Assembly: GCA_024653945.1 (NCBI GenBank)
Contig: JANLIT010000003.1
Location: forward strand, 98,936-162,935
Origin: Candidatus Campbellbacteria bacterium
GTDB lineage: Bacteria > Patescibacteriota > Minisyncoccia > Phycocordibacterales > EsbW-18
Direction of reading: 5' to 3'
Length of the DNA stretch: 64,000 bases
The notes beneath the pieces are model-generated. The model saw only the letters and a list, made by a program, of their open reading frames with translations. It did not search any database and was not told the DNA's origin. Each line of letters starts with the position of its first letter. Positions within the stretch are counted from its first letter, which is position 1. The position numbers were made by a program, and so were the translations under genes. Shown here one piece after another: positions 3,097 through 62,469 of the stretch.

Positions 3097-3126
3097 AAAA
3101 TTGGGGTCAGGCACCTTTAATATTTG

Positions 3127-3197
3127 TTCCGGGATAGGGACTCGAACCCCAATACTCAGGACCAAAACCTGATGTCCTACCATTAGACGATCCCGGA
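3127..3197 (-). tRNA. tRNA-Gln (anticodon UUG)
   Basis: Cloverleaf read by eye on the minus strand: acceptor UCCGGGA/UCCCGGA, anticodon stem UCAGG/CCUGA with loop UUUUGGU, T-arm GGGGUUCGAGUCCC. Confidence 0.85.
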
Positions 3198-3203
3198 GTT
3201 TTA

Positions 3204-3310
3204 TTCAGTTGTATCCTACTACGACTCGGCCAAAGGCCTCGCTTGCACTGCGATTTCAACAATCTCTCCGAGATTAAGAAATCGGGAGCATTAGCCCGAC
3301 CCAGCAATTG
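3204..3310 (-). other. Conserved structured leader immediately upstream of tRNA-Gln (copy A); homolog at 55371-55477
   Basis: 45-nt block AGTTGTATCCTACTACGACTCGGCCAAAGGCCTCGCTTGCACTGC is identical to the copy at 55371-55417 except for one mismatch; this copy carries hairpin GATTTC..AATCTC GGA GAGATT..GAAATC where the other copy carries a different perfect hairpin; conserved GGGAGC..GACCCAGCAA block follows. Confidence 0.45.
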
Positions 3311-3336
3311 AAGACACTATATCTTTTAAAACCTCT

Positions 3337-4386
3337 TTAGCCAAGTCTCTGTGCGTATGCACAACAACTTCGCTTCACCAATGATGGTCCTTCAAAAATA
3401 AGTCCTGTAATCATCTGGACCAAATCTGCACCAGCATCAAACTTTTCTAATGCCAACTCGGGAGACAAAACTCCTCCGCATCCAATGATGGTGAATCGAT
3501 TACCAAATCGCTCACGTGTTTTTTGAATCAGCTCTGTTGAGAGTTGTTGACACGGCTTCCCACTTAAACCGCCCACATATTTTTCTGGTGCCTCGTCCCT
3601 ATGTGTCAACGAAGTATAGTCTTTATTGACGTTTCCTATAACAACACCCGAAAGTCCAAATTCGTCAATAATAGTAAGGAGCTTTTCAAAAAGATGCCAC
3701 GGAATATTGATGGGCATTTTTATATACATTGGCTTTGAGTGTTGAATTGTTTTCAATTCCGACAGAAGTGCTCCAAGAAGTTCTGATGTGGTGAATGTTT
3801 CTCCACCAGATGCATTCGGACATGAAATATTAATTGTGTAATAATCACCAACGCCTGCGTGAACAAGTTGTTGTAAAGAATACACATAGTCAGCAATGCC
3901 GTCTTCAATACTTGCGGCCTGCTTGTCATTTGTTCGAGCAATACTTATACCAATCACGTACTCTTTTTCGCGTGGACAAGATTGTAGTCGTCTGATAATT
4001 GCATCAACACCATCATTGCGAAGTCCTTTGTTTACCAAAATACTTTGTGAACGAATAAGTCGTGTGAGTCTAGGTTTTGGATTTCCCTCGCATACTCGGG
4101 CAGTAACCGAACCCACCTCTTCCCCACCAAGTCCAATTGAGGGAAGAATGCGCGTGAGACGACCGTTGTAATCAAGGCCCGCAGATAAGAGGAATGGGGT
4201 TCTATATACGATGCCATCTACCGTCTTTGAGATATCCGGGCCCCTGTAGCCGTATATACCACGCACCAAGGCCCGAGATACGTCAAAACGACCAAACCAC
4301 TCACCGAAAGCAACCATGACATCGTGGGCCCTTTCAGGGTCAAGTTGAAAAAGTATTGGTTTTAAAAGTAATTTATAGAACGACAT
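3337..4386 (-). CDS. pyrD: Dihydroorotate dehydrogenase (quinone-type)
   Basis: N-terminus LLKPILFQLDPERAHD and overall DHODH class 2 architecture. Confidence 0.8.
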   Translation of the reverse strand: MSFYKLLLKPILFQLDPERAHDVMVAFGEWFGRFDVSRALVRGIYGYRGPDISKTVDGIVYRTPFLLSAGLDYNGRLTRILPSIGLGGEEVGSVTARVCEGNPKPRLTRLIRSQSILVNKGLRNDGVDAIIRRLQSCPREKEYVIGISIARTNDKQAASIEDGIADYVYSLQQLVHAGVGDYYTINISCPNASGGETFTTSELLGALLSELKTIQHSKPMYIKMPINIPWHLFEKLLTIIDEFGLSGVVIGNVNKDYTSLTHRDEAPEKYVGGLSGKPCQQLSTELIQKTRERFGNRFTIIGCGGVLSPELALEKFDAGADLVQMITGLIFEGPSLVKRSCCAYAQRLG

Positions 4387-5897: not shown

Positions 5898-6854
5898 TTA
5901 TTTTAAAAACTTTTGTATTACATCAAGTGCCTCACCGGCAGTTCGAGCATCCATGAGTTTGAGAAGAATTTTTTTGTCATATCCGTCACCCTGAAGATAT
6001 GATTTGAAGTGTTTCTTCATCAACGCAAAGGATTTCCTCTTGCCACATAATTCATCAAAAAGTTTTGTATGCTCGGCAAGAACAGTGAGACGCTCAGACA
6101 ACCCTGGCCGAGGTGAGTCAGACCCAAGCCATGGATTTCCAAAAATAGCACGACCAAACATCACTCCGTCAGGGCCGTACGTAATTACTTTTTCTCGCGC
6201 ATCGTTCATATCAACCACATCTCCATTCCCAATAATAAGCGTCTCGTGTTTGCTTTCCTTTTCAAACTCATCTCGAATTGCAACTGCTTGTGCAATAGTG
6301 TCCCACCGTGCTGGTACTTTTGACATTTCCTTTTTTGTGCGGGCATGAATGGTAATTGCATCAATGTGTGTTTCAAGAAGTGTCGGCAACCATGTCTCCA
6401 ATTCATTGGTTGTGTATCCTATGCGTGTTTTTACCGACACAGGAATATCTTTTGCCCCTTGTTTGAGAGCAAGAATAAGTTCTTGGGCAAGTTGTGATTC
6501 CTTCATAAGTGCGGCACCTGCGCCTTGCTTACACACACCATCATCAGGACACCCCATGTTGATATCAACACCATCAAACCCGAGCTCGCGTGCAAGCGCT
6601 CCAGCCTTTTCCATATACTCAGGCGTTGAAGTGAAAAATTGTGCAACGATTGGTCGCTCACCTTCTGAGTACTCAAGATCATGTACCAGCGCATCATATC
6701 CTCCACGGAATAACCCGTCTGCAGAAACAAACTCGGTCCACAAGACATCAAGTTTTCCATACTTCCCAATAATCCGCCGGAACGCGGGGTCAGTTACATC
6801 CGCCATTGGGGCAAGACAAAAGAATGGTTGTGGGAGTTTTTTCCAAAAAGACAT
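5898..6854 (-). CDS. tRNA-dihydrouridine synthase (Dus family)
   Basis: FFCLAPMADVTDPAFRRI; TIM-barrel flavin motifs; start set at internal Met (MSFWKK...); the upstream ORF extension lacks homology. Confidence 0.8.
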   Translation of the reverse strand: MSFWKKLPQPFFCLAPMADVTDPAFRRIIGKYGKLDVLWTEFVSADGLFRGGYDALVHDLEYSEGERPIVAQFFTSTPEYMEKAGALARELGFDGVDINMGCPDDGVCKQGAGAALMKESQLAQELILALKQGAKDIPVSVKTRIGYTTNELETWLPTLLETHIDAITIHARTKKEMSKVPARWDTIAQAVAIRDEFEKESKHETLIIGNGDVVDMNDAREKVITYGPDGVMFGRAIFGNPWLGSDSPRPGLSERLTVLAEHTKLFDELCGKRKSFALMKKHFKSYLQGDGYDKKILLKLMDARTAGEALDVIQKFLK

Positions 6855-15511: not shown

Positions 15512-15602
15512 AGTGAATAGAATATTGAATGTAGTATATGGAACGTAGGAAGACAGATATAGTTTAGCAAAAAAAGCGATACTTTGGTAGAATCACCTCA
15601 TT

Positions 15603-15684
15603 GCCGGGGTGGCGTAATTGGTAGCCGCGCACGACTCAAAATCGTGTGTCGTAAGACATGAGGGTTCGATTCCCTCCCCCGGCA
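15603..15684 (+). tRNA. tRNA-Leu (anticodon CAA), type II with long variable arm
   Basis: Acceptor GCCGGGG/CCCCGGC, anticodon stem CACGA/UCGUG with loop CUCAAAA, T-arm GAGGGUUCGAUUCCCUC. Confidence 0.85.
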
Positions 15685-18811: not shown

Positions 18812-18850
18812 GGAGGCGTCGCATGGCGTCTTAGTGTGCAACGATTGTTC
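18812..18850 (+). pseudogene. Degenerate 5' half of a second tRNA-Ser (acceptor through anticodon stem)
   Basis: GGAGGCGTCGCATGGCGTCTTAGTGTGCAACG aligns 26/34 with the 5' half of tRNA-Ser(GGA); its acceptor 5' strand GGAGGCG is exactly complementary to the 3' fragment at 19045-19051. Confidence 0.5.
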
Positions 18851-18905
18851 CCGATTTACACACGAGTAAACCGAGCGTATTGTAAATCACAATCCCAGAT
18901 AAAGC

Positions 18906-18990
18906 GGAGGGTTCGCATAGTGGTCTAGTGCGCACGCTTGGAAAGCGTGTGTGCCGCAAGGCACCATGAGTTCGAATCTCATACCCTCCG
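18906..18990 (+). tRNA. tRNA-Ser (anticodon GGA), type II
   Basis: Acceptor GGAGGGU/ACCCUCC, anticodon stem CACGC/GCGUG with loop UUGGAAA, long variable arm, T-arm AUGAGUUCGAAUCUCAU. Confidence 0.8.
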
Positions 18991-18997
18991 CTTTGTG

Positions 18998-19052
18998 TGG
19001 GAGAAAGCGTGTGTGGGTCACACCACCGAGAGTTCGAATCTCTCCGCCTCCG
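18998..19052 (+). pseudogene. 3' half of a tRNA-Ser paralog (anticodon loop through acceptor); partner of the 5' fragment at 18812
   Basis: GGGAGAAAGCGTG-TGTGGGTCACACCACC-GAGAGTTCGAATCTCTC-CGCCTCC-G parallels the tRNA-Ser 3' half; the core TGTGGGAGAAAGCG recurs at 19133-19148. Confidence 0.5.
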
Positions 19053-19088
19053 CACCTGATGCAAAAATACCCCGCGAGGGGTATTCTT
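19046..19088 (+). other. Stable hairpin with GNRA tetraloop downstream of the tRNA-Ser fragment
   Basis: CCTGATGCAA-AATACCCC-GCGA-GGGGTATT-CTTTGTGTCAGG. Confidence 0.45.
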
Positions 19089-19241
19089 TGTGTCAGGAGG
19101 ACGAGATTCGAAAGGCGGAACATACACCTGCCGAGTGTGGGAGAAAGCGGCACAGTTAATAAACCAAGTGTTCAAACAATCCAAAAAATCGCCAGGTCGT
19201 TAGGCGTTCCAATGGAGGAATTATAAAATAATTTTTATTAT

Positions 19242-22844: not shown

Positions 22845-23741
22845 CTAGTTTTTTCCAAGAAGTGCTCCGATTCTTTCGGAAACTGGCGGGTGAGTCAAAA
22901 ACAACTTTCTCCAGAAACCAATTTTTTTCTCGTGTCCTCCACCAAGCGGACTACTAATAAAAAGATGTGCTGTAGCTTTGTGTACTCGCTTCATGGGTTG
23001 TGTATATGAGGATATCTTCGAGAGCGCTCCTGCAAGCCCTTCTGGATAGCGCGTAAGCAATGCCCCCGATGCATCTGCTAGAAACTCACGTTTGCGTGAA
23101 ATAGCGAGCTGTATGCACAGACCTGCAATTGGCGTCAGAATAGCAAGTACAATGCCGGCAATAACAAAAAGTGCGTTTCCTCGATTGTCATCACCCCCTC
23201 GAATATGACGCGACGTACGCAAGAAAAAATCAGAGAGCAGACTTAAAAAACCAACAATAATCACAACAACTGTCGACAAAAGGATGTCCCAATTGCGTAT
23301 GTGTGAGAGTTCGTGGGCAATGACACCCTCAAGCTCTGATCTATCTAACATATGTAGCAACCCTGTTGTTACGGCAATTGTTGCATGCTCTGGATTTCGC
23401 CCAGTCGCAAATGCATTCGGAGCATCATCAGTAATCACGTAGATTTTTGGCATCGGAATACCTGCAGTAATGGAGAGATTTTCTGTAACGGTGTATAAAT
23501 CAAAAAACTCTTCACGTACTGCGGGGCGTGCACCAGACAGAGAAAGTGCCAATTTGTCGGAGTACCAATAGCTTCCTATATTCATCACCAAACTAAAAAT
23601 AACAGCCGCATACACAATTTCTGGTGCGCCATATACTTGTCCGAAAAACCAACCAACAACTACAATAATGCACAAAAAACCAACCATAAGAAGCCATGTT
23701 TTGGTAATATTATTTTCTTTATTGGAGTATAAGGAGCTCAT
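22845..23741 (-). CDS. htpX: Zinc metalloprotease HtpX (M48)
   Basis: HELSHIRNWD (HExxH); transmembrane topology; M48 length. Confidence 0.85.
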   Translation of the reverse strand: MSSLYSNKENNITKTWLLMVGFLCIIVVVGWFFGQVYGAPEIVYAAVIFSLVMNIGSYWYSDKLALSLSGARPAVREEFFDLYTVTENLSITAGIPMPKIYVITDDAPNAFATGRNPEHATIAVTTGLLHMLDRSELEGVIAHELSHIRNWDILLSTVVVIIVGFLSLLSDFFLRTSRHIRGGDDNRGNALFVIAGIVLAILTPIAGLCIQLAISRKREFLADASGALLTRYPEGLAGALSKISSYTQPMKRVHKATAHLFISSPLGGGHEKKIGFWRKLFLTHPPVSERIGALLGKN

Positions 23742-23748
23742 GTAAAGT

Positions 23749-23860
23749 ACGAAATCCGAATATCGAAACCCGAAATAATGTTTAATTCTCTAAATTCAAA
23801 AACTTTAAACATAAGAATTTGTTGATTTTTTCGAATTTCGTATTTCGAGTTTCGGATTTT
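23749..23860. repeat. Inverted-repeat element built from TTTCGR heptads, copy 1 (family with 62348-62469)
   Basis: Left arm GTACGAAATCCGAATATCGAAACCCGAAATAATG, AT-rich spacer, right arm TTTTCGAATTTCGTATTTCGAGTTTCGGATTTT (imperfect reverse complement); the left arm is ~88% identical to the ftsX-upstream copy; it fills the gap 8 nt upstream of the htpX ATG. Confidence 0.6.
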
Positions 23861-53781: not shown

Positions 53782-53835
53782 TTTTAACTTAAGTATTCAT
53801 TTTTCAATAAGCAAGTACCTTCTTTTGAGGCATTT

Positions 53836-53869
53836 CAATCACCTGACTTAGCATAAGCGTGTTGGCTGA
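53836..53869. repeat. 34-nt conserved upstream element, copy 1 (upstream of the CYTH gene)
   Basis: TCAATCACCTGACTTAGCATAAGCGTGTTGGCTG; 32/34 identical to 54659-54692. Confidence 0.6.
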
Positions 53870-54658: not shown

Positions 54659-54692
54659 TCAATCACCTAACGTAGCATAAGCGTGTTGGCTG
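54659..54692. repeat. 34-nt conserved upstream element, copy 2 (upstream of the HD gene)
   Basis: TCAATCACCTAACGTAGCATAAGCGTGTTGGCTG. Confidence 0.6.
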
Positions 54693-54713: not shown

Positions 54714-55283
54714 TTATTTTGAGGTCAGGATACCAAGATCTTTAAAAATTTGAGGCAATTCCTTAAAGCCATCATCCTCTGTTATGTGACCAGCATTATG
54801 AAGGACAACGACCTCCGTTCCCAATTGTTTGAATCCAGCAACGTTTTCTTTAAAAAATCCATAAGGATCATTGTCCGAGATAAGAAGGGCTGAGCGAGAT
54901 ATTACTCCCTTTATCTTTTCTTTACTAATTGGGGTCTCTATCCATGGTCTCGCAATTTCTTTTACCTCATCGCCTTCTAGGTTTGCTAGATTAAACCAAC
55001 CAGCAACAAACACTGCACCACCAATCGGAGTATTGATTGACTCTAAATAACGGAGAATCGTCTGACACCCAATCGAGTGACCAATGAAATATGTATTTTC
55101 GTCCGGTGTTCCAACTGCAGATGCCAAATGATTTACCCAGCTCTCGATAACGGGGGTATCTGTACTTGGCATTTCAAGAACAAAAACCTCGTAACTCTTG
55201 TTTTCTAATTCTTTTTTAAGCCACGGTCGCCAATCATCACTTGCGCCCCCCGACCATCGATGAACAATAAATGCGCGTTTCAT
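54714..55283 (-). CDS. YdeN/RBBP9-like alpha/beta serine hydrolase
   Basis: GHSIGC (GxSxG) and ~190-aa size; start set at MKRAF, because the longer ORF reads through tRNA-Gln and the leader. Confidence 0.7.
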   Translation of the reverse strand: MKRAFIVHRWSGGASDDWRPWLKKELENKSYEVFVLEMPSTDTPVIESWVNHLASAVGTPDENTYFIGHSIGCQTILRYLESINTPIGGAVFVAGWFNLANLEGDEVKEIARPWIETPISKEKIKGVISRSALLISDNDPYGFFKENVAGFKQLGTEVVVLHNAGHITEDDGFKELPQIFKDLGILTSK

Positions 55284-55295
55284 AAAAGTGTTTGT

Positions 55296-55365
55296 TGCTG
55301 GGCTTGGATTCGAACCAAGGTGACGACTTTCAGAGAGTCGCATCCTACCGCTAGATGACCCAGCA
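55296..55365 (-). tRNA. tRNA-Gln (anticodon CUG)
   Basis: Acceptor GCUGGGU/GCCCAGC, anticodon stem CGACU/AGUCG with loop CUCUGAA, T-arm UUGGUUCGAAUCCAA. Confidence 0.85.
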
Positions 55366-55370
55366 ATACA

Positions 55371-55477
55371 TAGTTGTGTCCTACTACGACTCGGCCAAAG
55401 GCCTCGCTTGCACTGCTGTTTGTATTCAATCGCTTTGCTCTTGAACAAACAGGGAGCGTTAGATGACCCAGCAAAGT
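55371..55477 (-). other. Conserved structured leader upstream of tRNA-Gln (copy B)
   Basis: Same 45-nt block as 3206-3250; this copy's hairpin is CUGUUUGU..ACAAACAG (8 bp perfect) at the position of the other copy's different perfect hairpin; its 5' block TGCTGGGTCATCTAACG mimics the 5' end of tRNA-Gln(CUG). Confidence 0.45.
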
Positions 55478-55552
55478 AGCTACACAATGCCCTATTTTGG
55501 GGCTTTTTTCAATCCCCTTTCGTTAGCACGGCAGTGAGCGTACACTTTATGT

Positions 55553-56189: not shown

Positions 56190-56636
56190 ATATTAACTTG
56201 CGCGAGTTGTTCGTACCTATATCTAGACTCAACATCGCGGATAAGATGTGTCATAAAAAAAATATTTTTATTTGGTTTTGGTATTGGCGTTTCGGTTATC
56301 AAAGCACTTACACACCATCTAGCAAAAGACTCTCCTCTGCGTGAAATTGTTATTGTGACAGGTTCAAGAGATGAAAATGACGTTCTGTACAAAGAGTTTT
56401 TTGAAGATGTGGCACAAAAGAACACGAACGTCTCATATACATACACCATATCTCGTCCATCTGAACACACACCTTTAAAACACACAGGGCACATTCAAGA
56501 CCATATTAAAAACCTACAATTTGATATCAGTGATGTCTATGTGTGTGGTCAAGAGAAGGCATGCAACGATCTTGTGGAAAAAATCCAAATGACAAAACCA
56601 GAGGACTGTGTCTTTTTCGTGGAGGCCTTCCATTAA
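56190..56636 (+). pseudogene. Remnant of an FNR-like oxidoreductase (NAD(P)-binding domain only; no start, FAD domain missing)
   Basis: The in-frame read from the ASCH stop gives ...FGFGIGVSVIKALTHHL...DVYVCGQEKACNDLV...VFFVEAF, typical of the C-terminal NAD-binding half of FNR-family reductases; no ATG and no FAD-binding RxYS region. Confidence 0.45.
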
Positions 56637-61406: not shown

Positions 61407-62333
61407 TTATGCACGAAGATACCGACGAACAGCGAGATAACTTGAGATTGCACCAAGAAAAATTCCAGCAGCAAGAATAATGAGAAACATCTCTCCAAAA
61501 TTGCTTACGTAATATTCAAACAAGTTCATTGCACCAAAAAATTCTTTGGTAAATGGCCCAATCCAGTACGTCAGAGGGTAAAAGAGTGCAAGGACAAGTA
61601 TTCCAGACACAATACCATACATAACACCCTCAACAACAAATGGTCCACGCACATACATATTTCCAGCACCGACAAGGCGCATAACTGAAATCTCTTCGCG
61701 TGCAGTGTAAATCGCAAGCCGAATAGTATTGAATGTAATAATGAGGGAGAGAACAATAAGAATCACACTGAGAGCAAGTCCGAGTCGTTCTGCTGAATTA
61801 ATGATATTACTTAATTTTTCTATAACCACCTTATTATCGTTATAGTTTACTTTTTGAATGATAACATTATTACTACTTCCGAGAGATGCTGGACTATCTA
61901 AGAACGCCGCGACAGCCTCATATTGAGATGTCTCCTTTGCGCGAATATTAAATACCGCACCAAGTGGGTTATCATCCAACTCTTGAAGTGCGCCGAGAAT
62001 TGTTTGGTCGTCTTTGTGTCGCTCCTGAAATGCTACAAGAGCTTGTTCGCGTGTAACATACCCAACGGTTGCCACCTCAGGAAGTGCTTCAAGAGCTCCT
62101 TTAAGCTTTAAAATATCGGTCTCTGTGGCGTCCGTCAAAAAGTACACATTCACATCAACTTTTTCTTTCAATTGCAGCAGTGATGCATTCAATATTGCTC
62201 CAGAAAAAATAACTGCTCCGAGAGTAAACAGTGTTACCACCATAATCAGGACAGAGGCGAGCGACACAAAACCGTTGCGCCAAAAATTCACAAATCCCGC
62301 TTTCAGTATTCTTTTTGTGTTAATCCAAAACAT
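61407..62333 (-). CDS. ftsX: Cell division permease FtsX
   Basis: 4-transmembrane FtsX topology with periplasmic loop; downstream of ftsE; start set at ATG 62333. Confidence 0.8.
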   Translation of the reverse strand: MFWINTKRILKAGFVNFWRNGFVSLASVLIMVVTLFTLGAVIFSGAILNASLLQLKEKVDVNVYFLTDATETDILKLKGALEALPEVATVGYVTREQALVAFQERHKDDQTILGALQELDDNPLGAVFNIRAKETSQYEAVAAFLDSPASLGSSNNVIIQKVNYNDNKVVIEKLSNIINSAERLGLALSVILIVLSLIITFNTIRLAIYTAREEISVMRLVGAGNMYVRGPFVVEGVMYGIVSGILVLALFYPLTYWIGPFTKEFFGAMNLFEYYVSNFGEMFLIILAAGIFLGAISSYLAVRRYLRA

Positions 62334-62347
62334 AATAGTTACATTAA

Positions 62348-62469
62348 GCACGAAATCCGAATGTCGAAATCCGAAATAATATCTAATTTTTAAATTTAAA
62401 ATTTTTAAACATTTGGATATTCATACATTTTTATTTGTTTCGATTTTCGTGCTTCGATATTCGAATTTT
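62348..62469. repeat. Inverted-repeat element built from TTTCGR heptads, copy 2 (between ftsE and ftsX)
   Basis: Left arm GCACGAAATCCGAATGTCGAAATCCGAAATAATA, right arm TTTCGATTTTCGTGCTTCGATATTCGAATTTT; the right arm overlaps the ftsE stop; the left arm ends 15 nt before the ftsX ATG. Confidence 0.6.

Follow-up and report, generated by a model that had tools for sequence, protein, structure and literature searches.

The window, meaning the whole 64-kb stretch of DNA that was analysed, belongs to a Candidatus Campbellbacteria (Patescibacteria/CPR) genome and contains four tRNA genes. Two of these four encode tRNA-Gln, both on the minus strand, and each is directly preceded by a copy of the same element, which we refer to as the leader. 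The copy that precedes tRNA-Gln(CUG) is called copy B and the copy that precedes tRNA-Gln(UUG) is called copy A. The features of the two loci are listed below.

54714..55283, minus strand: alpha/beta (Ser) hydrolase gene (PF06821), which starts 10 nt past tRNA-Gln(CUG)
55294..55365, minus strand: intact tRNA-Gln(CUG) (ARAGORN, Infernal; Rfam tRNA 55.9 bits)
55477..55366, minus strand: leader copy B, directly upstream of tRNA-Gln(CUG)
55457..55473, minus strand: tRNA-Gln-like 5' block of copy B, TGCTGGGTCATCTAACG, corresponding to tRNA positions 1-17
55416..55452, minus strand: variable hairpin of copy B, CUGUUUGU (55452..55445) / ACAAACAG (55423..55416), with a 21-nt loop region
55372..55415, minus strand: conserved 44-nt block of copy B, 43/44 identical to copy A
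55403..55393, minus strand: small hairpin GGCC-UUU-GGCC in the conserved block of copy B
55384..55372, minus strand: tRNA-like piece GTAGGACACAACT at the 3' end of the conserved block of copy B, which resembles tRNA positions 18-30
55366..55371, minus strand: non-conserved tail of copy B, AUGUAU, which abuts the mature tRNA 5' end
55484..55512, minus strand: possible promoter of copy B (TTGAAA, 17 nt, CATTGT), weak, found by eye, failed the consensus scan
3126..3197, minus strand: intact tRNA-Gln(UUG) (ARAGORN, Infernal)
3198..3309, minus strand: leader copy A, directly upstream of tRNA-Gln(UUG)
3306..3289, minus strand: 5' block of copy A
3284..3251, minus strand: hairpin of copy A
3250..3207, minus strand: conserved block of copy A
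3206..3198, minus strand: tail of copy A
3316..3344, minus strand: promoter-like site of copy A (TTGGCT, 17 nt, TATAGT), kept in relative L004

The original prediction had placed copy B at 55371..55477. This range is correct, and the leader extends five bases further, to 55366.

The genes around the two leaders include DHODH, a GNAT acetyltransferase, the Ser hydrolase, HD, CYTH and ASCH genes and a class II ribonucleotide reductase. The DHODH, hydrolase and ASCH proteins are each 100% identical to Candidatus Campbellbacteria entries at NCBI. These neighbours are housekeeping genes, and no integrase, transposase or other mobile-element gene was found near either leader. The start of the GNAT acetyltransferase gene (3096, minus strand) lies 30 nt past the 3' end of tRNA-Gln(UUG). 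At neither locus is there a terminator between the tRNA-Gln gene and the downstream protein gene. These terminator-free gaps of 10 and 30 nt suggest tRNA-mRNA co-transcripts at both loci, and the Ser hydrolase gene and tRNA-Gln(CUG) probably form one transcript. On the plus strand, a terminator-like hairpin (GCCCTATTTTGGGGC) followed by TTTTTT is found at 55489..55503 in the divergent intergenic region. A terminator at this site would block antisense transcripts into tRNA-Gln(CUG) and its leader, and there is no plus-strand gene upstream of it. A short ORF at 56355..56636 (plus strand), directly upstream of the class II ribonucleotide reductase gene, encodes just the C-terminal portion of an oxidoreductase NAD-binding domain (PF00175) and may be a gene fragment.

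The -10 region of copy B (ATTGTGT) parallels that of copy A (ATAGTGT). The 5' end of the pseudo-tRNA lies 9-10 nt past the -10 box, the distance being 9 nt at copy A. A similar spacing is found for tRNA genes that have no leader. At tRNA-Leu in the window (region 15580..15603) and at tRNA-Gln(UUG) in the relatives L004 (region 4065..4085) and L005 (region 6070..6085), the tRNA gene starts 8-13 nt past a -10-like box (TAGAAT or TATAGT). Precursors of this kind are therefore almost leaderless, and the 110-nt leaders of the tRNA-Gln genes stand out against them. The pseudo-fragment is thus located where the 5' end of a tRNA usually lies, and the pre-tRNA transcript most likely includes the leader. 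An internal promoter inside the conserved block was also considered and is unsupported by a promoter scan.

Each leader is composed of a tRNA-Gln-like 5' block, CUCC, a strong hairpin, the 44-nt conserved block and a short tail, in this order. The claim that this is the second copy of one element found upstream of both tRNA-Gln genes holds: the window has two exact matches to the 38-mer GCAGTGCAAGCGAGGCCTTTGGCCGAGTCGTAGTAGGA, at 55379..55416 and 3214..3251, where no match is expected by chance, and a covariance model made from the two copies matches only those two (127 and 128 bits) in a search of the window and 13 loci of relatives. Copies A and B are derived from a common ancestral unit. Their similarity is unevenly distributed. 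In a hand alignment the two are identical at 19 of 23 positions in the 5' block, 12 of 39 in the hairpin, 43 of 44 in the conserved block and two of nine in the tail. A 44-column stretch with at most one difference was seen in none of 20,000 permutations of the differences (p < 5e-5). The hairpin sequences of the two copies are no more alike than shuffled sequences (similarity 0.57, shuffles 0.53, p = 0.34).

No further copy or partial copy of the leader is present in the 64-kb window beyond the two at the tRNA-Gln genes, and complementarity and partial matches elsewhere in the window are at chance level only. Inspection of the leader revealed no terminal inverted repeats. A MITE, REP or other dispersed repeat was rejected on these grounds, there being two copies only in 64 kb, both at tRNA-Gln, and no such repeats at their ends. 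A small protein was also rejected, as the conserved nucleotides lie in different reading frames in copies A and B; the leader is therefore non-coding.

The leader is closely related to tRNA-Gln itself. The original prediction noted that its 5' block nearly repeats the start of tRNA-Gln(CUG) over 17 nt, and TGCTGGGTCATCTAACG does agree with the tRNA at all but one of these (16/17; local-alignment shuffle p = 0.001). Another piece with tRNA similarity, GTAGGAYACAACT, is found at the 3' end of the conserved block and resembles tRNA-Gln positions 18-30 (10-11 of 13). When the 69-72 nt between these pieces are removed, copy B agrees with positions 1-30 of tRNA-Gln(CUG) at 26/30 and copy A at 24/31; the match of the spliced leader exceeds all of 2,000 shuffles (p < 0.001). 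Judged from its sequence, the leader is a CUG-type tRNA-Gln fragment of ~30 nt from the 5' end, whose D-loop is interrupted between G18 and G19 by 69-72 nt of inserted sequence. Within this insert are CUCC, the long hairpin, the 12-nt CAGUGCAAGCGA, the GGCC-UUU-GGCC hairpin and GAGUCGUA. The D-stem pairing of the pseudo-fragment, as read from the two copies, has been lost in both. ARAGORN and the Rfam tRNA model make no call on the leader, in which tRNA positions 1-17 and 18-30 are the only recognisable ones, and a complete tRNA or a full tRNA pseudogene was rejected for lack of such a call.

The 5' block of copy A is of the CUG type and is unlike the start of its own UUG tRNA (TGCTGGGTC compared with TCCGGGATC). 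The sole stretch that the two have in common is CTAATG, and they have no significant similarity (p = 0.88). Both copies are of the CUG type, even the one before the UUG tRNA; the unit therefore had a single origin and came to the two loci intact. At copy B the block and the tRNA start form a direct repeat (16/17) with ~90 nt of non-coding DNA between the repeats. The suggestion that the leader arose by partial duplication of the tRNA 5' half is thus right about its tRNA derivation, whereas a simple local duplication at each locus does not fit the CUG-type block of copy A. It is reasonably clear that the leader originated as a tRNA-Gln fragment bearing an insert, and that each of the two tRNA-Gln genes is preceded by it as a single unit.

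The hairpin reported for copy B is present. Folded alone it has a predicted energy of -12.3 kcal/mol, compared with a shuffle mean of -3.5 kcal/mol (z = -4.8), and none of 500 shuffles is as good. The copy A hairpin alone reaches -12.4 kcal/mol (z = -4.3). Both hairpins sit between the same junctions, GCUCC and CAGUGCAAG. Comparison of their base stems, CGAUUUC/GAAAUCG and CUGUUUGU/ACAAACAG, reveals three in-register double changes, which are compensatory (n = 2 sequences). In the full leader the pair probabilities of the variable hairpin are 0.92-0.99 for copy B and 0.92-1.0 across both copies, and this hairpin is the only robust part of the predicted leader fold. A rod-like fold is predicted in which GCUGGGUC(R) pairs with UGGCCGAGU and YGCU pairs with AGCG; its two variable positions remain able to pair, with A-U in place of G-U and C-G in place of U-G. 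The rod competes with a multi-hairpin fold that contains GGCC-UUU-GGCC, both being predictions from two sequences only. A three-way junction closing the insert through AYGCUC/GAGUCGU was 5-7 kcal/mol worse than the minimum free energy fold and was rejected. Duplexfold predictions of the leader against the tRNA gave full-length artificial duplexes, which are unrealistic, and were set aside.

The loci of relatives were reached through homologues of the DHODH, hydrolase and ASCH genes, and orthologous tRNA-Gln genes were obtained from L004 and L005 only. The nearest DHODH homologues are only ~80% identical, and the lineages of the window, L004 and L005 are about equidistant. In L004 the promoter region is near-identical to that of the window and is directly followed by tRNA-Gln(UUG), with no leader. 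In L005 tRNA-Gln(UUG) is located elsewhere, again directly after a TATAGT box and with no leader. A three-way alignment of the window, L004 and L005 gives a clean presence/absence of ~105 nt, and the leader covariance model has no match in L004 or L005. No tRNA-Gln(CUG) locus of a relative was recovered through the hydrolase and ASCH homologues, because synteny with these genes is not kept. The expectation that the leader would be conserved in relatives is contradicted at the tRNA-Gln(UUG) locus, where the whole leader, including its tRNA-like block, is absent from L004 and L005. This absence argues against a conserved leader family and not against a tRNA-derived origin. As the leader is absent from two of three lineages it is dispensable and probably young.

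Database searches gave a similar picture. Exact-pattern scans for the conserved block in ~185,000 GTDB species genomes and in JGI metagenomes returned only chance matches in coding regions of unrelated bacteria, and the same type of scan in IMG/VR returned no match. A BLAST search of the leader against phage and plasmid collections found no match. In a covariance search with Rfam 15, at gathering thresholds and at a permissive setting (E <= 10), only the two true tRNAs score and nothing is found over the leader. The T-box, glutamine riboswitch and self-cleaving ribozyme families of Rfam were rejected as candidates, with no match even at E up to 10. A conserved cis-regulatory leader family was likewise rejected, given its absence at the orthologous loci of L004 and L005 and the absence of the block from the GTDB, JGI and IMG/VR scans. 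Nothing relevant was found in the literature on tRNA introns of CPR bacteria. Absence from the relatives and from these scans makes the leader lineage-specific, and by parsimony it was gained in the lineage of the window. As an orphan of one genome, the leader is most suitably classed as an unusual form of tRNA leader or as a partial tRNA duplication.

The leader shares properties with several known systems. External transcribed spacers of tRNAs can act as small RNAs, an example being the 3'ETS of leuZ in E. coli. Such RNAs are non-coding spacers that are co-transcribed with a tRNA and released by processing, and their conserved part binds a partner in trans, a likeness that we propose for the leader. 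Unlike them the leader is on the 5' side, is itself tRNA-derived, precedes both isoacceptors and is known from its sequence alone. Partial tRNA duplications at the att sites of integrative elements and prophages also resemble the leader in having a partial-tRNA direct repeat beside an intact tRNA and a lineage-specific presence or absence. In the classical cases the duplicated part is the 3' part of the tRNA, beginning at the anticodon loop or T-loop, and the repeats enclose a kilobase-scale element with an integrase. The leader instead duplicates the 5' 30 nt, with ~90 nt between the repeats and no integrase, and the repeat of copy A mismatches the resident tRNA.

Disrupted tRNAs (intron-containing, split or permuted, and mainly archaeal) have inserts at non-canonical positions, as the leader does in its D-loop. 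In contrast to these the tRNA copy in the leader is truncated at about position 30, has no 3' half nearby and is followed by a complete tRNA, in a bacterial host. T-box and other tRNA-related cis-regulatory RNAs are, like the leader, structured leader RNAs tied to one tRNA. The leader differs from T-boxes in having no Rfam match and no terminator/antiterminator pair, and it precedes a tRNA rather than a synthetase or biosynthesis gene.

The leader could be a neutral scar, that is, recombination debris in which a disrupted old tRNA-Gln was displaced by a new copy and remains as a passive leader that RNase P removes. The route to such a scar would perhaps be the activity of an integrative element or illegitimate recombination with incoming DNA. 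We consider a scar the main rival to the explanation preferred below, possible if somewhat doubtful. It is consistent with a leader that is made of tRNA pieces, has kept the D-stem pairing of the pseudo-fragment in neither copy and is absent from relatives and from all databases searched, and with the presence in the window of another nested tRNA locus, that of tRNA-Ser(GGA). A scar would be expected to diverge evenly, whereas the 43/44 block adjoins a saturated hairpin and tail. Both hairpins are still strong, with compensatory changes, and the unit is found at an equivalent position in two unlinked loci. The 16/17 direct repeat at copy B should moreover ease deletion, yet the leader persists. 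Its clean insertion relative to L004 and L005, its equivalent position in two different tRNA-Gln genes and the 16/17 direct repeat that flanks copy B would also suit a small non-autonomous mobile or site-specific element, with the 5' part of tRNA-Gln as its target and a tRNA-Gln-like attachment sequence. Mobilisation would then require the conserved end and leave the internal hairpin unconstrained; modular repeat elements are likewise built with conserved ends around a variable middle. An element of this kind is improbable given that there are two copies in 64 kb, both at tRNA-Gln, with no terminal inverted repeats and no integrase or transposase nearby, that the flanking repeat of copy A mismatches its own tRNA, and that exact-pattern scans found no copies in ~185,000 species genomes or in JGI metagenomes. 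A length of ~100 bp, as in the leader, is also too short for circularisation in tyrosine-recombinase chemistry.

The original prediction raised the possibility that the leader competes with folding of the tRNA. In this mechanism the 5' block would act as a decoy acceptor, pairing in cis with the 3' acceptor strand of the tRNA and so gating RNase P and the output of tRNA-Gln. Folding of whole precursors predicts such competition for copy B and not for copy A. The predicted decoy of copy B has seven of seven pairs, dominates the ensemble and is 6.8 kcal/mol below the native fold (-66.0 against -59.2 kcal/mol), although nearest-neighbour models ignore the tertiary stabilisation of tRNA and the order of co-transcriptional folding. 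For copy A only five of seven pairs form, the decoy is 3 kcal/mol worse than the native fold (-56.0 against -59.0 kcal/mol) and its probability is at most 0.03. The block of copy A has not co-varied with its own tRNA, and a decoy leaves the invariant 44-nt block unexplained. Since the copy A block has stayed CUG-type and does not track its own tRNA, folding competition is a by-product at one locus. A decoy that gates tRNA-Gln output is very improbable, and competing with tRNA folding is probably not the role of the leader.

The best explanation, which we put forward tentatively, is that the leader is a lineage-specific, tRNA-derived 5' external transcribed spacer of both tRNA-Gln genes with a function at the RNA level. 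The hairpin is saturated yet strong, with compensatory changes, and adjoins a block that is 43/44 identical; this suggests that the unit has been kept by RNA-level selection, on a comparison of two copies in one genome. Gene conversion limited to the block, or template-switch mutation in palindromes, could mimic the conservation pattern of the 44 nt. As a transcribed spacer, the leader would be made from the tRNA promoter as a part of the pre-tRNA, and RNase P would free it by cutting at the 5' end of the true tRNA. The hairpin would serve as a structural or stability module that is independent of sequence, and the 44-nt block as a putative site at which one factor, shared by the two loci, binds in a sequence-specific manner. 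The downstream tRNAs differ and the block does not, so the tRNA body is a less likely partner for the block than a shared trans factor. The most likely role would be as a stable leader-derived small RNA or as a cis-acting element for maturation or stability.

A more specific proposal is that the leader is an exapted tRNA-derived module for glutamine tRNAs, which places a 44-nt sequence-specific binding block and a structure-only hairpin on the precursors of both isoacceptors, and which acts as a leader small RNA that tracks tRNA-Gln transcription or as a recruiter of a maturation factor. We consider this rather unlikely. If the leader is functional, a tRNA fragment has been recruited into a new structured leader RNA for the tRNAs of one amino acid, and this in a reduced CPR genome, a setting in which few regulatory RNAs are known and the regulatory repertoire is minimal. 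If it is a scar, the leader and the nested tRNA-Ser locus are together a record of tRNA gene turnover and replacement in these genomes. In both cases the 110-nt leader stands out locally as a clear exception, and automated annotation would miss it.

The nested tRNA-Ser locus lies in the region 18812..19149, where tRNA-Ser(GGA) (18906..18991, plus strand) is found within a split tRNA-Ser pseudogene. Positions 1-35 are represented by the 5' fragment of the pseudogene (18812..18847) and positions 36-86 by its 3' fragment (19003..19053), and the acceptor strands of the two fragments, GGAGGCG and CGCCTCC, are a perfect complement. A 15-nt direct repeat, GTGTGGGAGAAAGCG, is present at 18995 and 19135, with a hairpin between the repeat copies. 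The locus looks like a tRNA gene that was replaced from within, or like att-site remnants.

Repeats of other kinds are also present in the window. A 34-nt repeat, 94% identical, occurs at 53835..53868 and 54659..54692, ~50-85 nt upstream of two adjacent minus-strand genes, one for a CYTH-domain protein and the other for an HD phosphohydrolase. The two genes may share it as a promoter, operator or 5'-UTR element. Another repeat, of 56 nt and 82% identity, contains GAAATCCGAA/GAAACCCGAAAT-like units and is found at 23745..23800 and 62346..62401. It lies directly upstream of an M48 peptidase gene (22845..23741, minus strand) in one case and overlaps the first codons of an ORF (61407..62351, minus strand) in the other, and may be a shared regulatory or 5'-UTR element.
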